A stretch of 64,000 bases of DNA from a virus (Duplodnaviria; Heunggongvirae; Uroviricota; Caudoviricetes): positions 1 through 64,000 of the IMG/VR virus record IMGVR_UViG_3300005077_000002; one strand, written 5' to 3'. Under the pieces are notes generated by a model, which saw only the letters and a program-made list of their open reading frames with translations, had not been told where the DNA came from and did no database searches. This document shows positions 4,425 through 43,004 of the stretch, piece after piece. How positions within the stretch are numbered: position 1 is the first letter of the stretch; each line of letters opens with the position of its first letter. Both the position numbers and the translations under genes were made by a program.

Positions 4425-4447
4425 ATGGTAAACTCCTTAATACTTAG

Positions 4448-20295: not shown

Positions 20296-21117
20296 ATGCG
20301 TTTATTTGCAACATTGTTAGCATTATTGATGTTAGTAACATCATGTAAGTTTGCGTCTATCGAAGGCGATGAAGTCGGCGTGATACAAAGAAAACCAACC
20401 ATCTTTAGTATGTTTTACAAAGGTGGTGTGGATAAAAATGCCGCACAACCAGGAACTGTTACCGTCGCCTGGACTACGCAAGTACTACGATTCAAGACTT
20501 CCCCACAGGTATATAAGGAAGTTTTTGATAACATCATTACTGACGACAACAATCCGGTTGATTTTGATTGTTATATAAGTATCAAGATCCAATCGCAGTT
20601 TGCACCAAATCTTTATTCTAACTTTGGTGAGAACTGGTATATAAATAATATTTCTCCTTTAGCCCGAGCAATTATTCGGGACAAATGCTCGCAATATATT
20701 ATGTTTGACTTGGCGGGCAACCGAGAAGTTCTTGAGAATATAGAAAATTTTATGCAGGACTCTCTCAGGAATTACTGTATCGTATCCAACCTACCTGTGT
20801 CAATTATCGATGTAACCATGGGTCAGGTAACTCCACCGGCCGACGTGCTTAAAGAAACCGAAAGAACCGCCGCTGAAAAACAATCCAGCCTTACACAAAA
20901 GGCCCGTTCCAATTCGGAAATCGCTAGAGCCGAAGCAGAGAAGAATAAGGCAATAGCTGATAAAGCATATCGCACAGAAATGGGAATGACAATTACTGAG
21001 TATTTGGAACTTCGAGCAATCGAAGTTGAAAAGGAAAAGGTCGAGATAATTAAGGATAAAAAAGATGTTACTATCGTCTTCACTGGGAATTTGCCCGTGA
21101 GTTATCCGGCAAAATAA
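20296..21117 (+). CDS. Putative lipoprotein (possibly SPFH/band-7-like)
   Basis: Signal peptide with lipobox LVTSC; GGAGG RBS; C-terminal AEAEKNKAIADKAYRTE resembles SPFH proteins (weak). Confidence 0.55.
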   Translation: MRLFATLLALLMLVTSCKFASIEGDEVGVIQRKPTIFSMFYKGGVDKNAAQPGTVTVAWTTQVLRFKTSPQVYKEVFDNIITDDNNPVDFDCYISIKIQSQFAPNLYSNFGENWYINNISPLARAIIRDKCSQYIMFDLAGNREVLENIENFMQDSLRNYCIVSNLPVSIIDVTMGQVTPPADVLKETERTAAEKQSSLTQKARSNSEIARAEAEKNKAIADKAYRTEMGMTITEYLELRAIEVEKEKVEIIKDKKDVTIVFTGNLPVSYPAK

Positions 21118-21128
21118 TTATCTCCGGC

Positions 21129-21222
21129 TCCGGTATAGTATAATGGCAATACAGCCTGAAAGTAATGTGTTACCGTACACAGTATTTCAGGTAATAAGTG
21201 GGTTCGAATCCCACTACCGGAT
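21129..21222 (+). tRNA. tRNA-like gene (94 nt) with about 20-22 extra nt in the anticodon arm; if spliced, the anticodon would be GUA (Tyr); function uncertain
   Basis: Acceptor TCCGGTA/TACCGGA (7/7), D-arm GTAT-AATGGCA-ATAC, T-arm GTGGG-TTCGAAT-CCCAC; extended helix CCTGAAA/TTTCAGG enclosing an inner hairpin TGTGT-TACCGT-ACACA. Confidence 0.45.
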
Positions 21223-21255
21223 CAATTAATAAACGGAAATTATAAACAAATTGGA

Positions 21256-21501
21256 GTGGAATTCAAGACAGGTTGCATAATGAGTTTTGAAAGCAATTAC
21301 TTAACTGCCATGATTGCAGCTATGTTTGGAGATTTTGACTATCTCTATAGACAGAATAATCGGTTCTTTATGCAGGAACGCGTAAAGAAGCATCGCTGCA
21401 AAGTATGTGGTAAGTCCACAGACTTTGATTCTAAATTATGCAGTAAGAATTGTTATTTATTGTATAAAAATAATTCAAGATTATATGAGGAGAACAAATA
21501 G
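21256..21501 (+). CDS. Small zinc-ribbon protein (CKVCGK...CSKNC)
   Basis: 81-aa ORF. Confidence 0.5.
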   Translation: MEFKTGCIMSFESNYLTAMIAAMFGDFDYLYRQNNRFFMQERVKKHRCKVCGKSTDFDSKLCSKNCYLLYKNNSRLYEENK

Positions 21502-21794
21502 TGGGAATATTAGTAGGCGGCCTAGTTGCAGGTATTGGTTCATTTCTGACATTTTACCTTTTATTAATGAAATCACCATTCCTGAAAAAGCTGGTAATTA
21601 AGCATCATTTAATGAGCGATATTCTGTTTACGGTATTAGCTTTCTGGCTATTACCTACGAATGGTGTAACAGCCATAGTTGGTGCCGGGATATTCAATGG
21701 CATTTGGTCATTGTATCTTGTATACATGCACAATCAGATGTATCCAAAACCTAACGCCAAAAAGCAATTCAGCTGGTTGGTTAATACTAAATAA
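21501..21794 (+). CDS. Membrane protein (3 TM helices)
   Basis: 97 aa, hydrophobic; start overlaps the previous stop. Confidence 0.55.
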   Translation: MGILVGGLVAGIGSFLTFYLLLMKSPFLKKLVIKHHLMSDILFTVLAFWLLPTNGVTAIVGAGIFNGIWSLYLVYMHNQMYPKPNAKKQFSWLVNTK

Positions 21795-21806
21795 GGAAAT
21801 CCATTT

Positions 21807-21980
21807 ATGGGTATACTCATGCTTGCAATATTAACCATAGTAGCTGTTTTGATACTACTAGCATTTATAGCTTTTGTTGTATTCACAGTAATTAAAATTG
21901 TCGCTATCTTAATATTGGTGGCGACTTTACTTGGCCTTGGTACAGCATCTTACTGGATTATAAAAGTATCCAATAAATAA
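21807..21980 (+). CDS. Small membrane peptide (57 aa; not in the ORF track)
   Basis: MGILMLAILTIVAVLILLAFIAFVVFTVIKIVAILILVATLLGLGTASYWIIKVSNK; RBS AAGGAAA. Confidence 0.45.
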   Translation: MGILMLAILTIVAVLILLAFIAFVVFTVIKIVAILILVATLLGLGTASYWIIKVSNK

Positions 21981-22177
21981 AAAGGAAACAAATATTAGTG
22001 TGTAGATTTAAATCTGGAATTGTGGTACCAACAGGTGATTTGCTATACAACTGGTTCACTGACAGTCATGAGGATTTGATTGATATGTACAATCTGAAAG
22101 GTACTAATTTCGTATGGGTTGAATATACATCAGATACCATAGAATTATTAGATACATCATCTTTAGAATAGGTTTTT

Positions 22178-22417
22178 ATGATTTCAAATCAAGTACGTTT
22201 TCAGTTTTATGAACGACCAAATGCATTTCGCAAATCAGGCAAAGAATGGGCTTTATCCGTACAGTTTGTCAATAATGATCCGTGGGTAATTAAGGATTGG
22301 GAGAAGGAACCCACCCCTGAAATAGTAGAAGATGTGAAAAAGGTGGCTATGCGCTGTTTTGAGTTTTATCATAACCATCTGCAAATACCACGTTTTGATA
22401 TAACCCAAGTTGATTGA
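22178..22417 (+). CDS. Hypothetical protein
   Basis: 79-aa ORF. Confidence 0.5.
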   Translation: MISNQVRFQFYERPNAFRKSGKEWALSVQFVNNDPWVIKDWEKEPTPEIVEDVKKVAMRCFEFYHNHLQIPRFDITQVD

Positions 22418-22748
22418 GTCCAATTATTGGCACATTTTGCCAAATTGCGCAGACGATTTGCTGATTAGCTGTTCGAGAATATGAATTAGTTCGTGTAACG
22501 CGAACATACTCGAATACCGGGATACTTGACCATATTGTTGGTATTACCAAAATGATTTATAGAATAGGTGGTACATTGAAATTACTGGAAACATCCATGG
22601 AAAACATAAATGTTGGGGATAATTATCTTGTTCTAACAGATTCAGGTGAAATATATCACTGCAGAAGGATTAGTTTATTACAATCCGAATTCTGTGCTTC
22701 ACGTTTTAACAATGTAACACAATTCTGGTGTCCATTTTATAATAAAGT

Positions 22749-23051
22749 GTGAAAGGTATTAGATTGAAGATACTTAATGTAATTCTCCATAGAACCAAAG
22801 TAAAACTTACTAAAAGTGAGTGGCGCAGACTTATGCGTCATAACTTCTCAAAGGTCGTAAAACCCTTGCTTATCGATGCGGGTGTTGTGGATAATACCAT
22901 ATCTTATGGAGACTATCCATACCCGCATATTATGTTCGAAGCAGATGGGGTGTACATGGACAAATTAACTCGGGTTATAAAAAATATTATTAAACCAAGA
23001 AAGTACAAGAAACACAAATGTCAATTAAAGCAGCTGAACTTGGACCTATAA
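22749..23051 (+). CDS. Hypothetical basic protein
   Basis: 100-aa ORF. Confidence 0.5.
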   Translation: MKGIRLKILNVILHRTKVKLTKSEWRRLMRHNFSKVVKPLLIDAGVVDNTISYGDYPYPHIMFEADGVYMDKLTRVIKNIIKPRKYKKHKCQLKQLNLDL

Positions 23052-23102
23052 TATTTCTGGATGCCATTAAGAATAGCCAAATTTCTATAAAGGAACAAAC
23101 AC

Positions 23103-25325
23103 ATGCGGTATTTAATTTTAATGACCGGTTCGCCAGGTTCCGGAAAATCTACCTGGATTAAAGATCATGGGTTGAAACCATATACCATTTGTCCAGATGA
23201 TATCAGACTGATGTTTCAGACACCGGTTATAACTCCTGAGGGTAGTACGTCTATTTCACAGAAAAATGATAAAGACGTCTGGGAAATACTGTTCAGGATG
23301 CTGGAAAAGAGAATGGAACGTGGTGAGTTTACAGTTATTGACGCAACTCACTCTACAACGGACAGTATGAATGCATATAAGAAATATGCTGAAAAACACA
23401 GATATCGTGTATTCGCTGTTTCATTCCGTGATATACCGTTTCATGAATGTGTGCAGCGTAATTTAAATCGTGAACCATTGAAAATAGTACCTTTTGAAGT
23501 TATCCAGAGAAGTTACGCCAGATATGAAACCGAAGCCGGCCGCATTCCATCTTACATAAAAGTTCTTATGCCAGGCAGTGAGAAAACAATCAATTACAAT
23601 GTTCATGATATGAACAATTATAAAAGGATTCACCATATTGGTGATATTCATGGTTGTTTTGATGTATTGATGAAGTACTTCAGTGAAGTTGGTGTTGATC
23701 CTAATAATCTGCCAGCCGATGAATTGTTCATATTCACTGGCGATTATATTGATCGTGGCATTCAGAATTACGAAGTAGTACAGTATTTATTATCCATCTA
23801 TGCAAAATCTAATGTTATTATGCTGGAAGGCAATCATGAGAAATGGTTAAGACAATATGCTCATGATACCATTGAGCCAAATTGCAGTAAAGAATTCATT
23901 AAAACCATGAAGCAATTCTATACGCATCCAATAGATAAGAAGAAACTTCGTGAGTTTACCCGGCATTTGGCACAACTTACTATTTATGATTACGGATTAT
24001 ACAAGGTTATGGTAACTCATGGTGGTTTACCTTTTATTCCGAAAAATCCATTACTGGTTTCTACCCAGCAGATAATCAACGGTGTTGGCGGATATAATGA
24101 TATTACAATAGTAGATGAATCATTCAGTAAAACGTCAAATGAATCTAATCTATATTATTGTATTTCTATACATGGTCATCGCAATAAAATGGATGAACCC
24201 ATACAATCTTCCAAATACACTTATAATCTTGAAGGTAAAGTTGAATTTGGTGGAATGTTGCGGTGTGTAACACTGGATAAATCAGGCATCAAAACATTCG
24301 AAATCAAGAATGATGTATTTGCAGCCCCGGAATTAATATCAAAATCCGAAAATGATTTATCCGGCACTGCGTTGACTATTAATGAACTTTTTAATGCGCT
24401 TAATACAAGCAAATTCATAAACTCCGTTAATGTTTATGGTGATATTTATTCATTCAATTTCACCAAACAAGCATTCAAACTTAATGAGTGGAATGATCTA
24501 ACAAAGCTTGCCAGAGGTTTATTCATTGACAAGGCCAATATGAAGATAGTGGCCCGCGGATGGCCAAAATTCTTCAATGAAAACGAACCCGAAGTAAATA
24601 ATATTCAGGAATTATCACTCAGGATTGCTTATCCGTTGTCAGTATATCTTAAATACAATGGATTTCTTGGTCTTCTTGGATATGATGGTTCAGATTTCAT
24701 TATGGCATCTAAAAGTTCCACGAATGCATTCCATGCTATGCTGTTTACTACAATGATGCGTAATAGACATGGCGCCAAATTCAATGAATTGCGCGAATAT
24801 ATGTCAGCATCGAATACAACATTGCTATTTGAAGTAATTGATTGTGTCGAAGATCCGCATATTATCTATTATCCTGAGCCAAGAATTGTTTTGTTGGCTG
24901 AAGTAAAGAATGATATCGATTTCGTGCAAACTCCTTATAATGAATTACTCGAACTTGGCAGAAGGTTCGGATTTGAAGTTAAGCAATTAGTACAGGTAAT
25001 TAACAACAAAAACGAATTATTCTCTTTGATTGATTCAACAAAGGGAATAAACACTTCAAATCCTATTGAAGGATATGTGATTGAGGACTCTGGGGGCTAT
25101 ATGCTCAAGGTTAAAACAGAGTATTACAGATATTGGAAAATGATGCGTGCAATCCAGCACAACATTATTAATTCATCGAATCAATCCTTCAGAGGATTAT
25201 TCACTCCTGAAGCCATAAGATTTGTTCAATTCATGAAAAACAAACAACGATTTGAATTAATGGAAAAATCAATCATTCAATTAAGGATGGAGTTCAATGA
25301 AGAATATTTTAAAGCAACTGCGTAG
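23103..25325 (+). CDS. pnkp: Trifunctional Pnkp-like RNA repair enzyme: T4-Pnk-type 5'-kinase, calcineurin-type phosphoesterase, and C-terminal ligase-like nucleotidyltransferase
   Basis: N-terminus GSPGSGKSTW + PDDIRL matches T4 Pnk (GCPGSGKSTW, Asp-x-x-Arg); GDIHG / GDYIDRG / GNHE metallophosphoesterase motifs; C-terminal KYNGF (KxNG variant of the ligase motif I). Confidence 0.75.
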   Translation: MRYLILMTGSPGSGKSTWIKDHGLKPYTICPDDIRLMFQTPVITPEGSTSISQKNDKDVWEILFRMLEKRMERGEFTVIDATHSTTDSMNAYKKYAEKHRYRVFAVSFRDIPFHECVQRNLNREPLKIVPFEVIQRSYARYETEAGRIPSYIKVLMPGSEKTINYNVHDMNNYKRIHHIGDIHGCFDVLMKYFSEVGVDPNNLPADELFIFTGDYIDRGIQNYEVVQYLLSIYAKSNVIMLEGNHEKWLRQYAHDTIEPNCSKEFIKTMKQFYTHPIDKKKLREFTRHLAQLTIYDYGLYKVMVTHGGLPFIPKNPLLVSTQQIINGVGGYNDITIVDESFSKTSNESNLYYCISIHGHRNKMDEPIQSSKYTYNLEGKVEFGGMLRCVTLDKSGIKTFEIKNDVFAAPELISKSENDLSGTALTINELFNALNTSKFINSVNVYGDIYSFNFTKQAFKLNEWNDLTKLARGLFIDKANMKIVARGWPKFFNENEPEVNNIQELSLRIAYPLSVYLKYNGFLGLLGYDGSDFIMASKSSTNAFHAMLFTTMMRNRHGAKFNELREYMSASNTTLLFEVIDCVEDPHIIYYPEPRIVLLAEVKNDIDFVQTPYNELLELGRRFGFEVKQLVQVINNKNELFSLIDSTKGINTSNPIEGYVIEDSGGYMLKVKTEYYRYWKMMRAIQHNIINSSNQSFRGLFTPEAIRFVQFMKNKQRFELMEKSIIQLRMEFNEEYFKATA

Positions 25326-25734
25326 TCAAACTGAACTATTGAGTAAAACATCGCATCCGGAGGATGCAATTAATATCCAGGCTAGAATACTAAATCTGTT
25401 TTCAAAACTGGAATATGGCAGCTCAGATTCAACTCATGCAGGTGCTAATACCATGCTGAACAAATTCGAGGAATTGTTTCCAAATATAAATATTGAATTT
25501 AACCTGGTAATGCTGGTACATAATATCAAATTCAGAATATTTACTTCCTCACTGAATGGAATGTATATCGTTTTAATTGAAGATATGTTAACCGGTGTTA
25601 TGGATGCAGTAAGAGTATTACCTGCATCAAGTGTTATATCATATATCCAGGATTTATGTGACAACATTAATAAACAAGCATCAGATCATGAATTTGAGAT
25701 GCCAAGAGAGGAATATTATGGAACCGAAGATTAA
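25297..25734 (+). CDS. Hypothetical protein
   Basis: 145-aa ORF. Confidence 0.5.
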   Translation: MKNILKQLRSQTELLSKTSHPEDAINIQARILNLFSKLEYGSSDSTHAGANTMLNKFEELFPNINIEFNLVMLVHNIKFRIFTSSLNGMYIVLIEDMLTGVMDAVRVLPASSVISYIQDLCDNINKQASDHEFEMPREEYYGTED

Positions 25735-26329
25735 AGATTTCTACTTCGATGTGGAAACAACGGGGTTTGATCCCGAAAAATGTGGTATTCACCAAATAGC
25801 TTTTGTTATTGCCATTGATGGTAAAGTCGTTGAACGACATTCCATCAACATGCGTCCATTCAAAGATGCTATTATTATGGATGAAGCACTGGAAGTAACC
25901 GGTATTACATTAGAACAAATAAATGCATATCAAACCGAGAAAGATGCTTACAATAAGCTGATAAAGATTTTGTCCAGACATGTGGATAAGTTTAACAAGA
26001 TTGATAAACTCTTTCAAATCGGCTATAACATTGGATTCGATGTGCAGTTTCTGCGAGCCTGGTTTAACAGGGTAGGTGATAAATATTATGGATCATGGTT
26101 CTGGCCAAATCCGTTGGATACAATGTCATTAGCTCTGCAGTATCTTAAATCACGCCGGCATTTAATGATTAATTTCAAACTGGCAACAGTAGCAATGGAA
26201 TTGGAATTGCTGGATGATGTTGAAGAAGAAGAGGAAAAATCATCATCACACAACTTCCATGATGCACTGTTTGACATTGATATTACCAGACAAATATACT
26301 TAAAAGTTACGGGAGCACATTTTGACTAA
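25718..26329 (+). CDS. DEDDh 3'-5' exonuclease (DnaQ / RNase T-like)
   Basis: Exo I FDVETTG, Exo II YNIGFDVQFL, Exo III HDALFDIDIT; GAGAGGAA RBS before the ATG at 25718. Confidence 0.75.
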   Translation: MEPKIKDFYFDVETTGFDPEKCGIHQIAFVIAIDGKVVERHSINMRPFKDAIIMDEALEVTGITLEQINAYQTEKDAYNKLIKILSRHVDKFNKIDKLFQIGYNIGFDVQFLRAWFNRVGDKYYGSWFWPNPLDTMSLALQYLKSRRHLMINFKLATVAMELELLDDVEEEEEKSSSHNFHDALFDIDITRQIYLKVTGAHFD

Positions 26330-27596
26330 AATTGATTCATTAACTCAACAGCTGGTTAAGCTTTATCGAGAAGTAACCGGCAGTGATTCTGGGGTAGATG
26401 TAGCTAAACCTAGTTTTACATATGCTACTGTCTACGCTAATAATGCATCACACAGATCATCGAATAATCCTTTGGATATCGTTCGTATTATTAAACATAA
26501 CAAACCTATACCACAAGTTATGCAACTAGACACAGGTGCACAGAATGAAGAAACAGGTGTAAAGGAATTGTATCTTCGTGGTGGCGAAGTTCTAATATTT
26601 GTTCAGTACTTCAGTTATCGGCGTGGAGTCGAAGCTGAATGTTTATTGGTTGGTCCACATGGATTTCCAAAGAAACTGGATAGATATTTCAAATCCTGGA
26701 AAAATAAATACTTAGAAAAGAAATATGAAATAACTCCAGGATATTATGCGATTATGCAGACTCCTATGGGATTAACCATATCTCCCAAATTAACCAAAAA
26801 TGCGTTTAATCAAATCCCGGTAGTGCATGATTCAGTTTCTGAATTGAATACAGACATGCAACATTATTTCTCTAACTTAAAAGACTTTAAGCGTTACGGT
26901 CAATCAGGAATACGCAAAGTTTTATTAGTAGGTCCTCCGGGATCAGGTAAAACTACGATGATAAATAATATTATTCGTAATATGAGGGAAACACATGTTG
27001 TTAGCTATGGCACAGGTATAGGACAAGCAGCCCATTTCAGCTATAGGATGTCAAGATCTAAATTCCCATCCATCTTTATATTTGAAGATGCAGAATCTTC
27101 ATTAAACATGGATAATTCCGATGTATTGAATTTTCTAGATGGTCAAAATCAGCCCAAAACAAAAAGCGGCCATTACGTTATAATGACCACAAATTATCCT
27201 GAGAAGATATCCGATCGTATATTAAAACGTCCTGGTAGAATTGATAAATTCATCTTCGTAGGGGCACTGCGTGGTAAACAAGCCATTGAATGCTTTAACC
27301 TGTACAAACCCAAATTCAATAAGTTTAATCTTGCTGATCTCGAGAAACATCTCGATAATTGTACAGGTGCCGAAATAAAAGAAATTGCAATGGCATCGCG
27401 CAGCTATGCAGCCAGTCATGGCGTACCATTGGACAATAATGCTGTCATAAAAACAATCGATATCATGCGAAACGGCTTTGACATAATAACCCGATACAAT
27501 GAGACTATAGGAAGCAAACTACTGGAACATAACAATACGTCCAGTAGGTTCGGATTCAACAGACCGAAATACTACGAAGAGGAAGTAGAACTGTGA
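26322..27596 (+). CDS. AAA+ ATPase (classic Cdc48/FtsH-type module) with an unknown N-terminal domain
   Basis: Walker A GPPGSGKTT, Walker B IFIFEDAE, sensor 2 RPGRIDKFI. Confidence 0.75.
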   Translation: MTKIDSLTQQLVKLYREVTGSDSGVDVAKPSFTYATVYANNASHRSSNNPLDIVRIIKHNKPIPQVMQLDTGAQNEETGVKELYLRGGEVLIFVQYFSYRRGVEAECLLVGPHGFPKKLDRYFKSWKNKYLEKKYEITPGYYAIMQTPMGLTISPKLTKNAFNQIPVVHDSVSELNTDMQHYFSNLKDFKRYGQSGIRKVLLVGPPGSGKTTMINNIIRNMRETHVVSYGTGIGQAAHFSYRMSRSKFPSIFIFEDAESSLNMDNSDVLNFLDGQNQPKTKSGHYVIMTTNYPEKISDRILKRPGRIDKFIFVGALRGKQAIECFNLYKPKFNKFNLADLEKHLDNCTGAEIKEIAMASRSYAASHGVPLDNNAVIKTIDIMRNGFDIITRYNETIGSKLLEHNNTSSRFGFNRPKYYEEEVEL

Positions 27597-28009
27597 TAAA
27601 CAGAATAACAAAACCATTAATAACTAAAATCGGATTAAATGAAGTGTTTGTGTTCGGTAGTAATGAATCTGGTATACATGGCGCTGGCGCAGCTAGAACA
27701 GCTATGTCTTTCGGTGCTATCCGAGGCAAAGGTGTGGGTCATTATGGTAATACCTATGCTATTCCGACAGTTGCCAAGAATATTAGCGGTAAGTTACCGC
27801 TTGCAACTATTCAGACGTATGTCAATGATTTCATTGAATACGCCAAAGCTCATCCGGAATTTAAATTCCTGGTAACTATGATAGGTTGTGGTCTTGCCGG
27901 ATACAATATCAGCTCAATTGCGCCTTTGTTTAAAGGTGCAGTATCCGTGAATAACATTCATTTACCCAAAGAATTCTGGAATGTACTTAACAAGCAGGAG
28001 AAGTCATGA
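27593..28009 (+). CDS. Hypothetical protein with a FGSNESGIHGAGAA glycine-rich motif (possibly a SLOG/DprA-like or macro-like nucleotide-binding fold)
   Basis: 138 aa; the motif assignment is weak. Confidence 0.4.
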   Translation: MINRITKPLITKIGLNEVFVFGSNESGIHGAGAARTAMSFGAIRGKGVGHYGNTYAIPTVAKNISGKLPLATIQTYVNDFIEYAKAHPEFKFLVTMIGCGLAGYNISSIAPLFKGAVSVNNIHLPKEFWNVLNKQEKS

Positions 28010-28186
28010 TAGTAAAACGATATCTTGAAAAAGGCGACACAGCTTACACTACCGGTGCATATATTGTGTATGCTGGAGATGGTAAATGGACCCTTGGTTC
28101 TATGGAAGAAGATACTTATTTCGATGGCGCTATAGTTAACAATGAGGAAACTAAGCCATATATTGAAGTTAAAGTGAAGCAGACTC

Positions 28187-28492
28187 ATGACAAAACATTT
28201 TAAACCTGGAGACAGCATAACTGTTGATGGTATAACTCTGAATTTAGTGAATGATGGTAAATGGATTGCCAAAATATCTAAACAACAACATAAGCAATGG
28301 ATGAATATTGGTGTTGATAAATGTCCGTTGTGTTTATCGTCAGATATAACTGCCACTTCCAATGATTTTGATGTAAACTATGCTGTATCTCATTGTGAAT
28401 GTAATAACTGTAATGCTACTTGGGATGAAGTGTACTATCTTAAGTATGTTGAAAACATAGTACCTGGGGTGACTATTGTTAATGATCACTGA
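28187..28492 (+). CDS. Zinc-ribbon protein (CPLC...CECNNC)
   Basis: 101-aa ORF. Confidence 0.5.
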   Translation: MTKHFKPGDSITVDGITLNLVNDGKWIAKISKQQHKQWMNIGVDKCPLCLSSDITATSNDFDVNYAVSHCECNNCNATWDEVYYLKYVENIVPGVTIVNDH

Positions 28493-28718
28493 AATATGGG
28501 CCGAGAAAGTTTCAGATAAAAACATACTACACGGAGACTATGAATTGGTGTCTTCCAACAGAATGTCAAAACATGGATGGACATCAATTGCAGAATTCCG
28601 TTCTAGTATCGAAAACCATGCTTTGTACATCGGCGAAGTAACTCCTGGTCGATTTAAAATGGACATGGGCCACTTCTTCAACAGGCATGCTTTTACACTA
28701 GTATATTTTTACACATAA
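28476..28718 (+). CDS. Hypothetical protein
   Basis: 80-aa ORF. Confidence 0.4.
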   Translation: MLMITEIWAEKVSDKNILHGDYELVSSNRMSKHGWTSIAEFRSSIENHALYIGEVTPGRFKMDMGHFFNRHAFTLVYFYT

Positions 28719-28741
28719 TTAATAATCTCAAGGAGTACAAA

Positions 28742-29500
28742 TTGAATATTAATATCCCAGATTCTGATTTAAGATTTATTGTAACTAGGATTCCAAAAGA
28801 TGTCCGTGATCTAATGATGAAGTATCCGGATCTTATTCTGGCTGGTGGATTTATTCGTGCCACAATCGCCGGTGAAAAAGTTTCTGACATTGATATTATG
28901 GCCAGATCCGAAGAATATGGCAAACGGGCGGCAATGGAACTTGCTGTTTCCAGAAAAGCACGAATACATACTACTGAAAATGCCATTACTGTATTGGCGC
29001 CCCCACGAATACCCGTGCAGTTCATCACAAGATGGACCTATTTAGCTATTGATCATGTTGTACTTTCATTTGATTTCACGATAGCCCAGGCAGCCATACA
29101 GTTTGATGCTGCAAAGAATAAATGGATCGGACTTTGTTCCGACATGTTCTACGTTGACCTGGCTGCTAAACGACTTAATTACGTTTGCCCAAAGAGAGTA
29201 GAAGATGCCGGCGGATCTATGATACGTGTACTAAAGTTTCTGAACCGCGGCTATAAAATACAGGCTTTGTCTTTATCTAAAGTAATAGCGCGGTTAGCCT
29301 TTGGTGTAAATGGTATCGATTCGATCTATACTGAAGACAAGCTGGCTCATATACTAGCGGGTTTACTGCGTGAAGTTGATCCATTAACAGTTGTTGATGG
29401 GTTTGATATTGTGGATGAACATGAAGTGTTGGAAAAACCAACTGTTCAGCCTGAACCCATTGTAGCTGTTACACCTGTTGGTTCTATCCATGAAGTATAA
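28742..29500 (+). CDS. Pol-beta-superfamily nucleotidyltransferase (CCA-adding-enzyme-like head motif)
   Basis: LAGGFIRATIAGEKVSDIDIMA resembles GGAVRD...DxD of class II tRNA nucleotidyltransferases; RBS AAGGAG; start codon TTG or ATG. Confidence 0.45.
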   Translation: MNINIPDSDLRFIVTRIPKDVRDLMMKYPDLILAGGFIRATIAGEKVSDIDIMARSEEYGKRAAMELAVSRKARIHTTENAITVLAPPRIPVQFITRWTYLAIDHVVLSFDFTIAQAAIQFDAAKNKWIGLCSDMFYVDLAAKRLNYVCPKRVEDAGGSMIRVLKFLNRGYKIQALSLSKVIARLAFGVNGIDSIYTEDKLAHILAGLLREVDPLTVVDGFDIVDEHEVLEKPTVQPEPIVAVTPVGSIHEV

Positions 29501-29894
29501 GATTCTTCTGCTGGTATTTTTACCAGTATTAGTATTGTCTCAGAACTGGTCCATCAAGGATCTTCAGAAAAAGATTAATATCGATTCTAACGCAGGATAT
29601 GAAATTACATTTCCCGGGTTAGATACCGAAGTATCTTTGGAAGTTGAGGCAACTGATAAACCAACTGTTGACAATCCAAAACATAAGATATGGATTGGTT
29701 TTATGTCATCTAATAACAGGAAAGACTTCATACAACTAAAAGACATACGTATAGATTCAGAATTTCTTTATATGAGTTTGCTGGTTATAATTGATTATAA
29801 AGAATATCCTTTGGAATACTATGTTCCGACATCATCCATTCGATGTATATTTATTCATCATAATGAAAATAAAGTATTAATTGTAGCTAAGTAA
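29478..29894 (+). CDS. Secreted protein with an N-terminal signal peptide
   Basis: MKYKILLLVFLPVLVLSQNW. Confidence 0.5.
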   Translation: MVLSMKYKILLLVFLPVLVLSQNWSIKDLQKKINIDSNAGYEITFPGLDTEVSLEVEATDKPTVDNPKHKIWIGFMSSNNRKDFIQLKDIRIDSEFLYMSLLVIIDYKEYPLEYYVPTSSIRCIFIHHNENKVLIVAK

Positions 29895-29902
29895 TCAATG
29901 TA

Positions 29903-30112
29903 ATGAGTAATAACAAATTATTATTATTGAAAATATCTGAAACTCAGTACAAATCTGAAAATGGTTTTGTCATGCAACGTGAATATGGTCTTACTCCTCA
30001 TGGCAATAACATTAATGGTTTTTGGGTACTGCGTGGCCCGAATAGTGAATGGATTGATTGTAACCAATTCAGACGTGATTTAGCAGAAAGGTATGGGTTC
30101 AAAATTGAGTAG
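29903..30112 (+). CDS. Hypothetical protein
   Basis: 69-aa ORF. Confidence 0.45.
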   Translation: MSNNKLLLLKISETQYKSENGFVMQREYGLTPHGNNINGFWVLRGPNSEWIDCNQFRRDLAERYGFKIE

Positions 30113-30311
30113 CACAAATAAATTCAGATTGTTTAAACTCAATGATTATTGGGGCATCATTACCAATAATCGTATCTTATATGATGCTGACTTTAAAGCA
30201 AAAGAACATGCTAATGCTATACTAGATGCACATTCAAAAGGTGCGGAAACATTTGAGGAAGCACTGCTTAAAATAGATCCCGATGTAGCTGGTGAAATAT
30301 TGAGATCTTAA
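30093..30311 (+). CDS. Hypothetical protein
   Basis: 72-aa ORF. Confidence 0.45.
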   Translation: MGSKLSSTNKFRLFKLNDYWGIITNNRILYDADFKAKEHANAILDAHSKGAETFEEALLKIDPDVAGEILRS

Positions 30312-30414
30312 TATTAACTACTAACGCATACTATTTCCGCAAGCTGTAGACTCCTGTCTACAATCTATCAAGCCAATCTACATATTTCTCATAAAATAAC
30401 AGGTAAATTCCACA

Positions 30415-30615
30415 ATGAATATACGAATGGTGCAGGTCGAATGCCCAGCTTGCGGTTATAGTATGGCTGTTAAACGTTGTAAAACGAAATTCAATAAACC
30501 AGCAAGTTCGTGGGTACGCATAACCGATGTTGGTATATGTCCAAATTGCTTTCAACAAGTATTTGTGTCAGCACTTATAAAAGAAAATGTATTAGAGGAA
30601 AATGATGAATACTGA
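30415..30615 (+). CDS. Zinc-ribbon protein (CPACGY...CPNCF)
   Basis: 66 aa; palindrome GTAGAC-TCCT-GTCTAC lies upstream. Confidence 0.5.
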   Translation: MNIRMVQVECPACGYSMAVKRCKTKFNKPASSWVRITDVGICPNCFQQVFVSALIKENVLEENDEY

Positions 30616-30985
30616 TTTCACAAAATTATTTCCAACTGAAACCGATCCAACAGCAACCGAACATCCCTGCGATTACTGCTCCCAGACTCAAAATTGTCCT
30701 TTGGTAAATTTATTAATGCAGAATGCAGATTTCATACAATTACATAATTCACTAAAAAACGGTAATACAATTGGTGGAATCCATGTCAATACCGACCAGG
30801 ATCTGCTGATGTTTGCTCAAAGTGAAGTTACCGTCTCAATGGCAAATAATTATCCGCAGTCAGATGGGCATGAACCTTCATATCTTAAATGCCCGCACAG
30901 AATTGAGGTTGATTCAGCCACAAGGACCCAAAGAGATTTATTAATACAACAATTTCAAGAAGCTGCTCCAGCAGTTGAATGGTAG
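30602..30985 (+). CDS. Hypothetical protein
   Basis: 127-aa ORF. Confidence 0.5.
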   Translation: MMNTDFTKLFPTETDPTATEHPCDYCSQTQNCPLVNLLMQNADFIQLHNSLKNGNTIGGIHVNTDQDLLMFAQSEVTVSMANNYPQSDGHEPSYLKCPHRIEVDSATRTQRDLLIQQFQEAAPAVEW

Positions 30986-31409
30986 AAAGGACTACCTTAT
31001 TAGACACGTAACCGCTCCGTACTGCGTAGTTCAAGATCATGTTATAACATTGATCGAGAACCTTAGCCATTATCCGTTAAAATCGGATGATATCGTATTT
31101 GAAAAACCAAGAATAACCATTTATGGATCTACACTTACATTGCAGGGTAACCGGGTATATCCTAAACATGAATGGGTAGAAGTACCTGCATCCGGTAATG
31201 AGATTCATAGAAATACTAAAGGTATTTATTATAAAAGAAAAACACTTTTGGGCCTGTTGCCTTATGGCAAACTGCGTCCATTTATTCTCAAGAGTAACGT
31301 CAGCTTTATGCTGAAGGATTTCCAGAGAATGGTGTTTTCTTTCTGGATTCTTCATGAAACCCAGGATGACATTCAACCCATAAGAACCGAACCGAGGGAA
31401 CACGCATGA
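30975..31409 (+). CDS. Hypothetical protein (non-ATG start)
   Basis: 144-aa ORF with no in-frame ATG near its start. Confidence 0.4.
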   Translation: MNGRKDYLIRHVTAPYCVVQDHVITLIENLSHYPLKSDDIVFEKPRITIYGSTLTLQGNRVYPKHEWVEVPASGNEIHRNTKGIYYKRKTLLGLLPYGKLRPFILKSNVSFMLKDFQRMVFSFWILHETQDDIQPIRTEPREHA

Positions 31410-32137
31410 GAAATATAGTGGTAGTAGGTGTAAACGGTAAAATTCAATCCGGCAAAGATACTTTTGTTGGAATGGTTATGAGTATACTGCAGGAATATGA
31501 TATTCGCTGCAGGACAATCAATTTTGCTGATAAACTTAAAGTGGTTGTAATGGACTTGTTTTCATTAAACCACGATGATGTATTTACTCAGGAAGGCAAA
31601 GCTCGCCGCCATCCAGAACTCAATAATATGACAACGAGATACATATTGCAGAAATTCGGTACTGAAGTTGCCCGCAATATATTTTCAAAAGTATGGGTCA
31701 ATTATTTGATCAAAACAGTAAGACTGATTTCTGACATTGATCATAATGTTCATGTAATTTTTGTATCGGATATGCGATTCATCGATGAGTTTAATGCTAT
31801 TAAATCTATGAATGGCATAACTGTTCGTGTAAAACGACTTGGCTTTGAACACACCAATCAAAATCATGAATCGGAATGGGGATTGGATAAGTACCCCTAT
31901 TTTGGTAAATGGTACAGTATCAGTGATATATTCACATTTTTGTACAATTTTATTGTTGTGCGCAAGGCAAAACCATTACTCATATCATTTGATACTGAAG
32001 TAGCTGCTTTGGATCTGCATGAATTGCAGGCCGCTGCTCATGAATTTTCCTATAAGATATTGGGAATACTTAAAACACGTAATGAAAGAAAATACCAGCA
32101 TGAAAGTAGTAAAGAGTACCGGTACACGGCGGTTTGA
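31406..32137 (+). CDS. Deoxynucleoside monophosphate kinase (T4 gp1-like)
   Basis: N-terminal GVNGKIQSGKDTF matches T4 gp1 GVKRSGKDT. Confidence 0.6.
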   Translation: MRNIVVVGVNGKIQSGKDTFVGMVMSILQEYDIRCRTINFADKLKVVVMDLFSLNHDDVFTQEGKARRHPELNNMTTRYILQKFGTEVARNIFSKVWVNYLIKTVRLISDIDHNVHVIFVSDMRFIDEFNAIKSMNGITVRVKRLGFEHTNQNHESEWGLDKYPYFGKWYSISDIFTFLYNFIVVRKAKPLLISFDTEVAALDLHELQAAAHEFSYKILGILKTRNERKYQHESSKEYRYTAV

Positions 32138-34451: not shown

Positions 34452-35612
34452 TTGAGAAAAGTTAATCATGCCGCTTTGGCAAAGAATTTTGTTAGATGTT
34501 ATACGGCCCAGGTATCTCCATTTGTACATGGTACATTTGGGATAGGTAAAAGCGAGACAGCAGCTGTTGTTGCTAAATTTCTGGCAAAGAAAGAAGGTCG
34601 TAACTTTATTCATTGGAACGAATCTGATCGTGAACTTAAGCAAGAAGTAATGAATGATCCATCCAAGTGGTTTGTGTATGCGGATGCTAGACTTACCCAG
34701 ATGGATCCTACAGACTTGCGTGGGTTACCTGGTTTATTTGATAAATCAGAAGTAGTAGACTGGAAACGGTCCATGCTGTTCAATACTATGGGTAAACCTA
34801 CTGCCCGCGGATTCTTGTTCTTTGATGAAATGAATCTTGCTGTACCATCTATGCAGGCTGCTGCTTATCAGTTGGTTAATGATCATCAGGTTGGTGAGTA
34901 TCCGATCTGCAAGGATGTATTTATTGCCGCTGCTGGTAATCGTGCTGAAGATATGGCCGCTACATTTGCCATGGCTGCTCCATTACGCAACCGTTTTGTG
35001 CATTATGAATTGATGCCCCCTTCAGTAGAAGAATGGTCCCGTAATTATGCAATTCCCAAAGAAATCGATAATCGTATTATTGGGTTTTTGCACTTCAAAC
35101 CGGCTGCACTCATGGCAGATAAAGATTCTATGAAACATATGGCCATGCCATCTCCCAGAACATGGGTAAAAGCCAGCCGGCTTATTAAGAGTCTTAAGGG
35201 TGATAAGGAAAGTCATTATCCTGAAATTGAAGATCAGGTTGCTGCAGCCGTCGGTGATGGTATTGCTGTTGAATTTGTAGCCTGGATTCGAATCAGAGAT
35301 GAATTGGATATTAAAGGTATTCTGGAACATCCTGAACGAGCAGCAGATATCACGCGTGTTGATATTAAATGGGCGCTTACGACTGGTATTAACGAAATTT
35401 ACCGCACCAGTACTGCTAAGGAATTTAATATCGATAATGCTTTCAGGGTTGTGAAATACTTTGGAGCTGAATTTGGTATTCTGCTTCTTCGCATGCTTAA
35501 GTATAGCAAAGGTCAGCAGTCCTTTATTACCAAGGCAATTCAGTCCCCAGCATACAATGATTTCATTAAGAATCATGCTCATATTCTTAATGAATCAGAA
35601 ATAACTAGTTAG
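34452..35612 (+). CDS. MoxR/CbbQ/CobS-like AAA+ ATPase
   Basis: Walker A GTFGIGKSE, Walker B FLFFDEMNLA, AAGNRAED...LRNRF; TTG start with an AGGAGA RBS. Confidence 0.7.
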   Translation: MRKVNHAALAKNFVRCYTAQVSPFVHGTFGIGKSETAAVVAKFLAKKEGRNFIHWNESDRELKQEVMNDPSKWFVYADARLTQMDPTDLRGLPGLFDKSEVVDWKRSMLFNTMGKPTARGFLFFDEMNLAVPSMQAAAYQLVNDHQVGEYPICKDVFIAAAGNRAEDMAATFAMAAPLRNRFVHYELMPPSVEEWSRNYAIPKEIDNRIIGFLHFKPAALMADKDSMKHMAMPSPRTWVKASRLIKSLKGDKESHYPEIEDQVAAAVGDGIAVEFVAWIRIRDELDIKGILEHPERAADITRVDIKWALTTGINEIYRTSTAKEFNIDNAFRVVKYFGAEFGILLLRMLKYSKGQQSFITKAIQSPAYNDFIKNHAHILNESEITS

Positions 35613-35633
35613 CCCGCTTATGCGGGCTTTTCC
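35611..35633 (+). terminator. Rho-independent terminator
   Basis: AGCCCGC-TTAT-GCGGGCT followed by TTTTCC. Confidence 0.6.
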
Positions 35634-35647
35634 ACAAAAGGAAAATT

Positions 35648-36955
35648 ATGTCATTATCCGCTGAAGACAAATTCGTAGCTGCAAAGCTAACGCTTCAAAC
35701 AAAAGCTACTTTCTTCTTTGCTTTATCAACAAATCTCAAATTTATCGAAACAGAATATGTTCAAAGTATAGCTGTAGACATCCGCAGTAATCTATACTGG
35801 AACAGAAGTTTTGTGGATTCCTTATGTACATTAGAAGTAGCTGGTGTGCTAGCGCACGAATCTTTGCATACCGCTTTTATGCATTGTCATCGTACAAATG
35901 GCAGGCATGCTGATTTATGGAATATAGCCGTCGACATAAAAACAAATGCAATGTGCTTATTGATGCAGTTGCAATTGCCAAAGGGTGGTATTATTCCTGA
36001 TGTAAATTCAGATAGTATTAAGATCACAATAAACGGTGTGAATATCTTTATTGAAAAGTTAACTGATCTTACTGCTGAAGACATTTATGACAAATTGTAT
36101 CATGAATTGGTTAAGAATAATGCATTACCACCTGAATCCAAGGACTGCAATACTTTAGGTGAACCGCAATCTGGTAATGGAAAATCTGACAACGATGACG
36201 GTGATAGCAATGATAGCGGTGGGAATAAAGATAGCAAAATGCCTCATAACTGGGATAAGCACATACTGAGTTCTGAAGGAGATATCCGCCAGGATGAAGT
36301 AGATGCAATTCGCAGAAAAAGTAAACAAAACATCGCAATGGCCGCTCAAATGGCAAAAGCTCGTGGAACTATGCACGGTGCGTTCCAAGGAATGATTGAT
36401 GCATTTCTGAAGGATATAATTAACTGGAGAACATTATTAAGTAATTTTATTACAAATATGCTTCCCGTAGATTATACATTTAGACGCCCGCATAGAAACA
36501 GTCTTTCCACTGGATCATACATGCCATCAATTGTTCGTGAAAGCATTGATGTCGTTATTGCCATAGATACATCAGGATCCATTGGTGATAATGAATTATC
36601 TGAATTTCTGGGCCAAGCAATTAGGATTTCCAGATCCTATGCTAATGTAATAATGACTTTATTATTTGCTGATATGGACATTCATGACATTATTGAACTC
36701 ACAAGCTCTGATTCACCTGAAGAAATTCTATCGCATGTACGCATAAATGGCGGAAGAGGGGGCACTAGCCATTTATGCATAGCTGAATGGGTAGCCGAAC
36801 ACAAAAGTAATGCTACCGCAGTCGTGTGTCTTACAGATGCTTTCACTGAATTTCCAGAACCATCTTCAGTTGTTGGATCATGGATGTGGGTATTGCCAAT
36901 TGGATCAGGAAACGTAAATATCCCATTTGGTATTGTAATTAAAATGGAGGAATAA
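35648..36955 (+). CDS. Putative metallopeptidase-like (HESLH) + von Willebrand factor A domain protein; DUF2201-type partner of MoxR ATPases
   Basis: N-terminal HExxH (HESLHTAFMH) and a C-terminal MIDAS motif DTSGS. Confidence 0.65.
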   Translation: MSLSAEDKFVAAKLTLQTKATFFFALSTNLKFIETEYVQSIAVDIRSNLYWNRSFVDSLCTLEVAGVLAHESLHTAFMHCHRTNGRHADLWNIAVDIKTNAMCLLMQLQLPKGGIIPDVNSDSIKITINGVNIFIEKLTDLTAEDIYDKLYHELVKNNALPPESKDCNTLGEPQSGNGKSDNDDGDSNDSGGNKDSKMPHNWDKHILSSEGDIRQDEVDAIRRKSKQNIAMAAQMAKARGTMHGAFQGMIDAFLKDIINWRTLLSNFITNMLPVDYTFRRPHRNSLSTGSYMPSIVRESIDVVIAIDTSGSIGDNELSEFLGQAIRISRSYANVIMTLLFADMDIHDIIELTSSDSPEEILSHVRINGGRGGTSHLCIAEWVAEHKSNATAVVCLTDAFTEFPEPSSVVGSWMWVLPIGSGNVNIPFGIVIKMEE

Positions 36956-42977: not shown

Positions 42978-42998
42978 GGGGCCTTGTGCCCCTCTTTT
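42978..42998 (+). terminator. Rho-independent terminator
   Basis: GGGGC-CTTGT-GCCCC followed by TCTTTTAT. Confidence 0.6.
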
Positions 42999-43004
42999 AT
43001 ATCT

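Follow-up and report, generated by a model that had tools for sequence, protein, structure and literature searches.

The DNA analysed here, called the window below, is a stretch of 64,000 nucleotides from a large, uncultured virus of the Caudoviricetes (positions 1 to 64,000 of IMG/VR record IMGVR_UViG_3300005077_000002). The gene for a predicted trifunctional RNA heal-and-seal enzyme of 740 aa (23103..25325, plus strand) and the genes downstream of it belong to one tightly packed block of early and replication genes, 44 kb long and co-directional. All ORFs of ≥150 aa between 20 kb and 64 kb lie on the plus strand; the one exception is an overlapping ORF (35022-35582) on the minus strand. Stops and starts overlap or abut. 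Promoter-like sites showed no excess over chance (52 seen, 58.8 expected). No plus-strand terminator-like site was found between genes within 23103-29500, the sole such site of this interval (25852-25869, a weak 5-bp stem) being located inside the exonuclease ORF. The five ORFs named in an earlier note on this DNA were all present on the plus strand where it had placed them.

A ribosome-binding site (AAGGA) lies 9 nt upstream of the 740-aa ORF. The first domain of the protein (about residues 1-165) is a 5'-OH polynucleotide kinase (Pfam AAA_33, residues 4-142, E 6.5e-18), followed by a binuclear metallophosphoesterase (about residues 170-400; Pfam Metallophos, residues 175-308, E 3.9e-17) and an Rnl1/Trl1-type ATP-dependent RNA ligase (about residues 440-740; Pfam RNA_lig_T4_1, PF09511, residues 470-675, E 2.3e-35, 122.9 bits with a cut-off of 28.3). 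Catalytic residues were invariant in a family alignment of 21 sequences, namely G14, K15, D32, R35 and R123 in the kinase, D181, H183, D214, N244, H245, H306, H357, G358 and H359 in the phosphatase, and K517, N519, G520, E577, E656, G657, K669 and K671 in the ligase. Judged from its sequence, the protein is a kinase, metallophosphatase and RNA-ligase fusion with intact active sites and adenylyltransferase motifs in its C-terminal domain, as the earlier note had proposed.

The same length and domain order are found in the phage 'RNA ligase' family phrog_8238, which matches residues 1-737, end to end (E 7e-207). Family members, such as those of Staphylococcus Twortvirinae phages (vB_Sau_Clo6 gp121), SPbeta-like Bacillus phages and Alicyclobacillus phage KKP_3916, are 38-45% identical to the protein across 96-100% of its length. 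At least 4,842 homologs of about 730-750 aa carry the same three domains, and full-length copies are present in 113 deposited phages, where they are annotated as RNA ligase, tRNA ligase, polynucleotide kinase, phosphatase or hypothetical protein. The claim that this was not a described system is contradicted by these matches and by published phage sets of kinase, calcineurin-like phosphatase, RNA ligase and Pol-beta nucleotidyltransferase (PMC7824862, PMC9703825). Within this known phage heal-and-seal family, the predicted enzyme is a new member and a divergent one (top non-self identity 45%), with gene surroundings unlike those of every other member examined.

In the classical phage tRNA repair by T4 Pnkp and T4 Rnl1 against PrrC, the same three chemical steps would be expected, but they are divided between two polypeptides instead of one. 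The two kinases are related (T4 Pnk, PDB 1ly1/1ltq, E 1e-6), whereas the phosphatases differ, with a calcineurin-type binuclear metalloenzyme here and a DxDxT HAD domain in T4 Pnkp. The ligase and T4 Rnl1 have their Pfam family (PF09511) in common; pairwise sequence search with the ligase did not find T4 Rnl1 and did find fungal Trl1.

Bacterial Pnkp of the Pnkp-Hen1 system (e.g. Clostridium thermocellum Pnkp) has the same domain order, and its kinase and metallophosphatase are homologous to those of the phage protein (TIGR04075 positions 10-323 of 851, E 1.6e-24; CthPnkp kinase-domain structures 4gp6/4jst, E 7e-7). Its ligase belongs to a different family: the phage ligase matched neither the Pnkp ligase part of TIGR04075 nor Pnkp ligase structures, and the TIGR04075 match scored 86 bits against a cut-off of 750. 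The label 'bacterial-Pnkp-type' given earlier is accordingly right for the kinase and phosphatase and wrong for the ligase. Pfam and PHROG profile searches found no Hen1 methyltransferase near the gene. Rnl1-type ligases work without Hen1, and its absence is expected and no anomaly, since the ligase is Rnl1/Trl1-type and not a bacterial Pnkp ligase.

The fungal and plant tRNA ligase Trl1 is likewise a trifunctional heal-and-seal enzyme. Fungal Trl1 LIG domains were the nearest and only solved sequence relatives of the phage ligase (9qw7, 6n0v, 6n67; E 1e-7 to 6e-6), and motifs I, IV and V could be aligned. The order kinase, metallophosphatase, ligase differs from that of Trl1, given in PMC6379707 as ligase, kinase and cyclic phosphodiesterase, with a healing domain that is a 2H phosphodiesterase leaving a 2'-phosphate. 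No Tpt1/KptA was seen with the phage enzyme.

The end of the trifunctional gene overlaps by 29 nt a 145-aa ORF (25297..25734, plus strand) to which matches assigned no function (no Pfam, PHROG or PADLOC match and no relative in 193 fetched loci). It is followed on the same strand by a stand-alone DEDDh (DnaQ/RNase T-like) 3'-5' exonuclease (25718..26329; Pfam RNase_T E 7.2e-15, phrog_192 E 4e-28, PADLOC DEDDh E 5e-20), with PolC/DnaQ exonuclease domains first and RNase T after among its best NCBIfam matches; translation probably begins with the ATG at 25718 (MEPKIK...), the mechanical ORF running from 25631. The phage's family-A DNA polymerase carries an exonuclease domain of its own. The next plus-strand gene (26322..27596) encodes a classical-clade AAA+ ATPase (Pfam AAA E 2.8e-11), with the ATPase at about residues 190-360 behind an uncharacterised 190-aa N-terminal region and best, partial NCBIfam matches to proteasome-activating nucleotidase (PAN), CDC48 and FtsH. 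Both genes had been recognised as such in the earlier note. The ATPase has only distant partial relatives among deposited phages, and no close ones were found in viral or metagenome contigs.

The protein previously described as 'glycine-rich nucleotide-binding-like' (27593..28009, plus strand) is indeed encoded, and was identified as a macrodomain-fold protein of the A1S_2505 phage family (NCBIfam NF049995 E 1.4e-40; phrog_2072 E 2e-37). With its AlphaFold model (pLDDT 92, pTM 0.88), Foldseek retrieved TARG1, DarG, Poa1p and viral macrodomains (TM 0.6-0.65), and the protein could reverse ADP-ribosylation or process ADP-ribose derivatives. For three small overlapping plus-strand ORFs (28006..28718; 65, 101 and 80 aa), the fetched loci contained no relatives; the second of them is rich in Cys and weakly matches a Lar-like zinc ribbon, under the cut-off (PF14354 Lar_restr_allev, E 0.0025).

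The last gene of the interval (28742..29500, plus strand, 252 aa) encodes a Pol-beta nucleotidyltransferase (NTase) of the Gad2 family, with the head and neck of class-II CCA-adding enzymes, a fold of tRNA 3'-end enzymes; the CCA-enzyme likeness noted earlier was thus confirmed. The motif GG...DxD plus a third Asp is invariant (G35, G36, D49, D51, D111). The body and tail domains of class-II tRNA nucleotidyltransferases (CCA-, CC- and A-adding) and bacterial poly(A) polymerase are missing, and Pfam PolyA_pol scored 13.4 bits, under its cut-off of 23. In class-II enzymes the nucleotide-selection motif is EDxxR, and the spacing of the ED...R motif here is unlike it. Homology of its catalytic head and neck to Gad2 (Gabija anti-defence 2, phage SPbetaL7; PF26128) extends over Gad2 residues 17-185 (profile E 1e-17), with GG...DxD and FDFT motifs in common. 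In Gad2 (400 aa) there is a 215-aa C-terminal extension, which the phage protein lacks; the short family is marked by a motif of its own, R-x-E-D-x-G-G-S...R, and ends in a conserved acidic tail. The anti-Gabija role of Gad2 has been validated by experiment, and an NTase fold is predicted for it (10.1101/2023.05.01.538930). As a short Gad2 homolog, the gene has the look of a counter-defence gene, as does that of the macrodomain protein. RlaP and Thg1-like NTases, which occupy the same gene-order position near an RNA ligase, are different protein families, and neither was found within the cluster by Pfam, PHROG and locus comparison.

Three tRNA or tRNA-like genes had been counted in the window, which has one canonical tRNA gene (tRNA-Thr, 4447-4520, minus strand) and one insert-bearing tRNA-like RNA gene. 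The third candidate lies within the ribonucleotide reductase gene (60216-60406, minus strand); ARAGORN called it only when its threshold was lowered, and it is probably spurious. The tRNA-like RNA (21129..21222, plus strand; ARAGORN intron mode; Rfam tRNA 44.2 bits, gathering score 29, E 3.6e-8) has normal acceptor, D and T arms, no encoded CCA and an extended, rod-like anticodon arm (31 nt against 9 in the Rfam model), and folds stably (MFE -34.7 kcal/mol, z -5.3). It begins 12 nt past the stop codon of an SPFH/Band-7 lipoprotein gene (20296..21117, plus strand; Pfam Band_7 E 8e-21; phrog_200), outside the interval of the earlier note, and 1.9 kb upstream of the trifunctional gene. Homologs of the SPFH protein (28-31% identity) occur in Xanthomonas, Stenotrophomonas, PaBG and Tunturiibacter phages. 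Close relatives for a conservation check were found neither for this gene nor for the RNA.

We consider, with a probability of about 0.7, that the 740-aa protein heals and seals RNA as a stand-alone enzyme, and that the downstream genes are independent accessories rather than obligate or regular partners, with no new self-contained system. Relatives of the exonuclease, ATPase and macrodomain protein were found in none of the 89 other enzyme loci (9 + 80; tblastn, phmmer and profile searches), the exonuclease and AAA queries being single sequences, which very divergent analogues may escape. A divergent Gad2-like gene was present in one of the 89 (L157, 1.1 kb upstream of the enzyme), leaving 79 of 80 loci without it, and the enzyme was found in 0 of 80 Gad2-like loci. 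Gad2-like genes normally belong to DNA replication and recombination modules, their usual neighbours being family-A DNA polymerase, clamp-loader-like AAA, RecT/Erf annealases, SNF2 helicase and YqaJ nuclease. The macrodomain loci (n=14) held no such partners, except for one Rnl1-like ORF 5.4 kb off. The 'self-contained module' of the earlier note is at odds with these counts.

It is unlikely, on balance, that the cluster is a working tRNA end-repair module, in which the exonuclease would trim damaged 3' ends, the Gad2/CCA-like NTase would restore the CCA end or break-lost bases (as RlaP), the trifunctional enzyme would then heal and seal, and the macrodomain would remove ADP-ribose-phosphate by-products. 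The CCA-enzyme head and neck and the nearby tRNA-like RNA without encoded CCA would fit, but the NTase lacks the tRNA-binding body and tail (252 aa against 340-520 aa in matched structures), scores under the PolyA_pol cut-off and lies six unrelated genes from the enzyme. Its validated homolog acts against Gabija, a DNA-nicking system. Pairing of RNA ligase and some NTase does recur: in 8 of 28 lineages, RlaP or Thg1-like genes lie <10 kb from that of the enzyme, on its strand. RlaP extends damaged RNA 3' ends by 1-2 nt (PMC12776372). L157 is a second independent co-location of Gad2-like gene and enzyme, and in L004 and L020 a close Gad2-like homolog abuts RlaP near a 'Swiss-army-knife' (SAK) HAD phosphatase (which it also abuts in L004), an Rnl2-type ligase and a metallophosphatase. 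In Xanthomonas phage X1, PNK, SPFH gene and A1S_2505 macrodomain all lie within 4.6 kb. This NTase recurrence and the X1 cluster count against neighbour independence.

Less probable still is a functional unit beginning upstream, with the SPFH protein and the tRNA-like RNA as a ribonucleoprotein scaffold or decoy working with the enzyme. Burroughs and Aravind reportedly predicted repair systems of SPFH proteins and tRNA-like RNA (Nucleic Acids Res, 2016), which this reading fits. Also in its favour are the Band_7 match, the position of the stable cloverleaf on the same strand, and phage X1, where PNK lies 1.8 kb upstream of the SPFH gene and the macrodomain 0.7 kb downstream. SPFH relatives were, however, found in 0 of 89 enzyme loci, four deposited phages have terminator-like hairpins and no tRNA-like RNA after the SPFH gene, and insert-bearing tRNA calls near the enzyme were not enriched (1 of 217). 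The SPFH protein is a possible accessory of RNA repair.

That the enzyme serves mainly in nucleic-acid metabolism of the phage itself (for example, to heal and seal DNA or RNA ends in replication, or to process transcripts or tRNA precursors) and does not counter host nucleases is very improbable. Its block has dNMP kinase, sliding clamp, recombinase, DNA ligase, DNA polymerase, primase and ribonucleotide reductase, in other phages it also lies amid replication and nucleotide-metabolism genes, and DNA ends are further substrates of bacterial and T4 Pnkp in vitro, but the window already has a separate ATP-dependent DNA ligase (43879-45204), characterised Rnl1/Trl1 family members act on tRNA-type breaks, and the enzyme tends to occur near phage tRNA arrays. 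In its other loci, tRNA genes are dense (217 in 1.58 Mb, 31 of 80 loci having any), compared with 29 in 1.29 Mb for the surroundings of the Gad2-like gene.

For the stand-alone enzyme, we infer activities and a tRNA substrate by analogy with T4 Pnkp and Rnl1 acting against the PrrC anticodon nuclease. The metallophosphatase would take off the cyclic or 3'-phosphate, the P-loop kinase would then phosphorylate the 5'-OH, and the ligase, adenylylated at K517, would reseal the break in the last step. Enzymes of this type are already common among phage genomes, and the find is real but fairly ordinary: a single phage protein that probably re-phosphorylates, cleans and re-joins cut tRNAs.

The ORF at 23103-25325 (+), which has a ribosome-binding site (AAGGA) 9 nt upstream of its ATG, encodes a trifunctional heal-and-seal protein of 740 aa. 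Three domains were identified with Pfam: an AAA_33 kinase (residues 4-142, E 6.5e-18), a Metallophos phosphatase (residues 175-308, E 3.9e-17) and an RNA_lig_T4_1 ligase (PF09511; residues 470-675, E 2.3e-35), the last aligned over model positions 2-227 of 227 and scoring 122.9 bits, above the gathering score of 28.3. Catalytic residues were checked on an alignment of 21 family members with 32-45% identity, and the following were invariant in 21/21: G14-K15 (P-loop), D32, R35 and R123 in the kinase; D181/H183, D214, N244-H245, H306 and H357-G358-H359 in the phosphatase; and K517-x-N519-G520 (motif I), E577 (motif III), E656-G657 (motif IV) and K669-x-K671 (motif V) in the ligase. Given the Pfam matches and the invariance of all expected catalytic residues, the trifunctional enzyme is a real observation, far beyond chance. 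All five ORFs that the earlier note had named between 23103 and 29500 were present as described.

The enzyme had been assigned to the bacterial Pnkp architecture, which is correct for the domain order, the kinase and the phosphatase, but not for the ligase, which belongs to another family (PF09511, which includes T4 Rnl1 and fungal Trl1). The kinase and the binuclear metallophosphoesterase are common to the two enzymes (TIGR04075 positions 10-323 of 851, E 1.6e-24), and CthPnkp kinase structures were matched. Membership in bacterial Pnkp (TIGR04075) was rejected, with 86 bits against a cut-off of 750 and the model unaligned beyond position 323 of 851. When the C-terminal 325 aa were searched against all PDB chains, the matches were fungal Trl1 ligase domains only (E 1e-7 to 6e-6), no Pnkp ligase structure being found at E <= 1, and the nucleotidyltransferase motifs of the ligase align with those of Trl1. 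T4-type Pnkp differs in carrying a DxDxT HAD-type 3'-phosphatase on the kinase, where this enzyme has Metallophos; the PNK of Xanthomonas phage X1, for contrast, has an HAD_PNKP domain. The ligase of bacterial Pnkp needs Hen1, while ligases of the Rnl1/Trl1 type are autonomous. No methyltransferase match, and so no Hen1 2'-O-methyltransferase, was found among the ORFs scanned in 20296-32137. Since the ligase is of the autonomous Rnl1/Trl1 type, this is expected and not an anomaly.

The family is large. The profile phrog_8238 ("RNA ligase") spans the whole enzyme (residues 1-737 against profile positions 1-735 of 737, E 6.6e-207), and full-length homologs were detected by tblastn in 113 deposited phage genomes, e.g. 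Staphylococcus Twortvirinae, SPbeta-like Bacillus phages and an Alicyclobacillus phage, annotated variously as RNA ligase, tRNA ligase, polynucleotide kinase, putative phosphatase or hypothetical protein. A metagenome protein search at E <= 1e-10 returned at least 4,842 homologs; among the matches listed, 120/120 were 722-790 aa long with the same PF13671, PF00149 and PF09511 domains, and the top non-self identity was 45%. Near-identical DNA was not found in deposited phages, where the phage of the window has no close sequenced relative, and look-ups gave no exact-protein record for the window's own proteins. A comparative review of jumbo phages (PMC7824862) reports gene sets that combine a kinase, a phosphatase (calcineurin-like ones included), an ATP-grasp RNA ligase and a Pol-beta nucleotidyltransferase, and such RNA-repair sets are routinely annotated, e.g. 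in Thrax phages (PMC9703825); no biochemical study of the kinase-metallophosphatase-Rnl1 fusion family was found in the literature. Judged by sequence, the central gene belongs, as a divergent member, to a large family of phage heal-and-seal enzymes already present in the sequence databases.

Downstream of the enzyme, a DEDDh exonuclease (25718-26329, +; RNase_T E 7e-15), for which the best NCBIfam matches were PolC/DnaQ exonuclease domains, then RNase T, is followed by a classical-clade AAA ATPase (26322-27596, +; Pfam, NCBIfam) with an uncharacterised N-terminal region of 190 aa. Relatives of the ATPase in deposited phages were distant and partial only, and close relatives were absent from viral and metagenome contigs. 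The protein at 27593-28009 (+) is a member of the A1S_2505 family (E 1.4e-40). Its model (pLDDT 92) matched the structures of TARG1, DarG, Poa1p, MacroD and viral macrodomains (TM 0.5-0.65, probability 0.9-1.0), the Pfam Macro model did not match it, and the residues G22-S-N24, G27, H29, G32-A-A34 and G98...G103 are invariant. The structural matches identify it as a macrodomain whose glycine-rich loops are predicted ADP-ribose-binding loops, which accounts for the glycine-rich nucleotide-binding-like motif noticed earlier; the A1S_2505 "phage non-structural protein" family can be relabelled accordingly. Three small ORFs (28006-28718, +), one with a weak Lar-like zinc-ribbon signal in Pfam, precede a Gad2-family nucleotidyltransferase of 252 aa (28742-29500, +). 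PADLOC assigned no defence-system membership and gave generic DEDDh and P-loop matches only.

The nucleotidyltransferase has at least 1,676 homologs; all listed ones and the protein itself carry the precomputed Pfam tag PF26128 "Gad2", the name of an experimentally validated anti-Gabija protein of phage SPbetaL7. PF26128 was absent from the Pfam scan run on the protein, the sole match being PolyA_pol (PF01743) with 13.4 bits, under the cut-off of 23 (E 0.098). The family profile matched SPbetaL7 Gad2 across the whole head and neck (50.3 bits, E 1.2e-17), and BLASTP also detected the homology (E 9e-9); Gad2 (~400 aa) has a further 215 residues without counterpart here, and the homology stops at its residue 185. 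Across the family, G35, G36, D49, D51 and D111 are invariant, and the AlphaFold model (pLDDT 86.5) predicts the head (Pol-beta nucleotidyltransferase) and neck fold of class-II CCA-adding enzymes, so that the earlier description of a CCA-enzyme-like head was right at fold level. Class-II CCA enzymes, however, continue into a body and tail that bind the tRNA acceptor/T-arm, whereas this protein stops after the neck; about 190 residues of the matched CCA-enzyme structures (340-520 residues) align with it. A reading as CCA enzyme is limited by the sub-threshold PolyA_pol score, the missing body and tail, and a family named for anti-defence. The short PF26128/Gad2-like family can nevertheless be relabelled as having the head and neck fold of class-II tRNA nucleotidyltransferases, a lead on the mechanism of Gad2, on which nothing was found in the literature. 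Anti-Gabija activity is reported only for SPbetaL7 Gad2 and a Brevibacillus homolog (10.1101/2023.05.01.538930). A strongly conserved acidic C-terminal motif (LLREVDPLTVVDG-D-VDEHE) lies at about residues 205-230, in a stretch predicted to be disordered (AlphaFold pLDDT below 50), and might serve as a peptide that docks a partner protein.

These genes had been proposed to form a self-contained tRNA end-repair module, and the co-occurrence check was negative for such a five-gene cluster across the sets of loci, with one exception. At nine trifunctional-gene loci from deposited phages and long metagenome contigs, tblastn detected no relative of the exonuclease, AAA ATPase, macrodomain or nucleotidyltransferase within 7-10 kb. 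At 80 viral-contig loci of the trifunctional gene, no exonuclease, AAA ATPase, macrodomain or SPFH gene was found with phmmer, and profile searches of 80 such loci gave the exception, a single divergent Gad2-like nucleotidyltransferase 1.1 kb upstream of the enzyme in viral locus L157. Starting from 80 viral-contig Gad2-like loci, phmmer found the trifunctional gene in 0/80, and RlaP was present in just 2/80; the commonest neighbours were family-A polymerase, clamp-loader-like AAA proteins, RecT/Erf annealases, SNF2 helicase and YqaJ-type nuclease, which together are a replication and recombination module. The 14 macrodomain loci, also searched with phmmer, had none of the cluster's other genes as partners, save one Rnl1-like ORF 5.4 kb off.

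From about 19.9 kb onwards, the window's ORFs of at least 150 aa are all on the + strand apart from a single one, which overlaps a longer ORF of that strand, and stops and starts overlap or abut at many junctions. This block also encodes dNMP kinase, sliding clamp, recombinase, DNA ligase, polymerase, primase and ribonucleotide reductase. No + strand terminator-like site was found in the scan between the genes of 23103-29500, and promoter-like sites occurred at chance level, uninformative on operon boundaries. Adjacency is the default state in a long co-directional block. On the gene neighbourhoods compared, the cluster as drawn is not a conserved system; the neighbours are best read as independent accessory genes, of which at least two may be counter-defence genes, and the trifunctional enzyme most likely repairs nuclease-cut tRNAs by itself.

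Nucleotidyltransferases of other kinds do recur beside the enzyme: on the same strand and within 10 kb, RlaP was found in 14 loci and a Thg1-like gene in 15 loci, corresponding to 8/28 lineages (defined at 70% identity) and often at a distance of 1-3 kb. RlaP extends damaged RNA 3' ends by one or two nucleotides (PMC12776372), and the density of tRNA genes near the trifunctional enzyme is ~6x that near the Gad2-like gene. In comparison loci L004/L020, RlaP directly adjoins a close Gad2-like homolog, with a SAK-type HAD phosphatase, an Rnl2-type ligase and a metallophosphatase in the vicinity. These observations leave room for a minority hypothesis in which the nucleotidyltransferase slot beside the ligase is filled here by a Gad2/CCA-like enzyme. 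We consider it improbable that the short Gad2-family protein adds nucleotides to RNA (tRNA) 3' ends in cooperation with the heal-and-seal enzyme, in the place of RlaP or Thg1; such a protein may also act on the CCA-less tRNA-like RNA beside the SPFH gene. If true, Gad2-type anti-defence proteins would be RNA-end nucleotidyltransferases, and this would provide the first mechanistic handle on Gad2 against Gabija and a new class of nucleotidyltransferase partner in phage RNA repair. A recurrent but interchangeable nucleotidyltransferase beside the enzyme (RlaP, Thg1-like, rarely Gad2-like) is in line with the modular make-up of RNA-repair gene sets described in the literature.

In one lineage of comparison loci (L013, 10869-13330; L014; L101), genes for a Thg1-like 3'-5' polymerase, an ADP-ribosylglycohydrolase and a YAcAr (SLOG) protein come after that of the trifunctional enzyme, an arrangement that looks like a tighter candidate RNA-repair/NAD-linked module than that of the window. 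Phage SPbetaL3 (L009) carries the trifunctional gene some 9 kb upstream of an anti-Gabija locus holding Gad1, and Gad2 occupies the equivalent locus in SPbetaL7 (L015), where no homolog of the trifunctional gene was detected in the fetched stretch of 17 kb.

Three tRNA or tRNA-like genes had also been counted towards the module. The sole canonical tRNA gene in the window is a tRNA-Thr at 4447-4520 (-), called by ARAGORN and by Rfam at the gathering threshold. With introns allowed, ARAGORN reported a "tRNA-Tyr" with a 20-nt insert at 21129-21223 (+), which was missed by default ARAGORN and by the whole-window Rfam gathering scan; a local Rfam scan scored the RNA (21129-21222) at 44.2 bits, above the gathering score of 29, with 31 nt in place of the model's 9. 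Its predicted fold (-34.7 kcal/mol, z -5.3) is a cloverleaf in which the acceptor, D and T arms are normal and the anticodon arm is extended into a rod; the RNA has neither a plausible 7-nt anticodon loop nor an encoded CCA. A further "tRNA-Tyr" with a 94-nt insert, called by ARAGORN at lowered threshold on the opposite strand inside the ribonucleotide reductase gene (60216-60406, -), is almost certainly spurious and was probably counted as the third gene.

An SPFH/Band-7 lipoprotein gene (20296-21117, +; Band_7 E 8e-21) ends with its stop codon 12 nt before the tRNA-like RNA, and this gene, the RNA and the RNA ligase/end-healing gene all fall within 5 kb in the window. Burroughs and Aravind are said to have predicted, in 2016, SPFH scaffolds and a tRNA-like RNA in RNA-repair systems. 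A minority reading is that here, too, an SPFH and tRNA-like RNA platform works with the trifunctional enzyme. The adjacency of SPFH gene and tRNA-like RNA was not seen in 89 enzyme loci, the RNA was absent downstream of SPFH in four SPFH-bearing deposited phages, insert-bearing tRNA genes were not enriched near the enzyme (1/217), and close relatives of the gene and the RNA were found in none of the viral and metagenome contigs. Xanthomonas phage X1 (L016, 3228-7840) carries a T4-type PNK (kinase and HAD phosphatase), an SPFH gene and an A1S_2505-family macrodomain (annotated hypothetical) within 4.6 kb, compared with 7.7 kb for these functions in the window, a weak echo of its arrangement.

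An obligatory Pol III-type proofreading role was rejected for the exonuclease at 25718-26329, because the phage polymerase is of family A with an exonuclease domain of its own and so does not require a stand-alone proofreader. In that polymerase (53441-56287, +), an N-terminal domain of the uracil-DNA-glycosylase superfamily (E 3.8e-7) precedes the 3'-5' exonuclease and polymerase domains. Elsewhere in the block are a gene pair at 34452-36955 (+), in which an ATPase gene (phrog_1297, E 1e-75) precedes one for a putative metallopeptidase (DUF2201) with a VWA-like domain, and two radical-SAM-like ORFs among the replication genes (42984-43868 and 50030-50749, +). The first 18 kb, where the tRNA-Thr gene is located, have about 45-49% GC and mixed strands, and at ~18200 the composition changes sharply to about 32-41% GC on one strand; this could reflect an acquired island, a different genome module or an assembly join. 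The 12.3-15.5 kb region has short, odd-looking ORFs only, and an 877-aa ORF at 8258-10891 had no Pfam, PHROG or phage tblastn match.

The main use of the finding is in annotation, as a divergent member of a very large phage RNA-repair fusion family. The fusion family is a good candidate for countering defences that cleave tRNA, among them PrrC, RloC, PARIS and collateral cleavage by Cas13.
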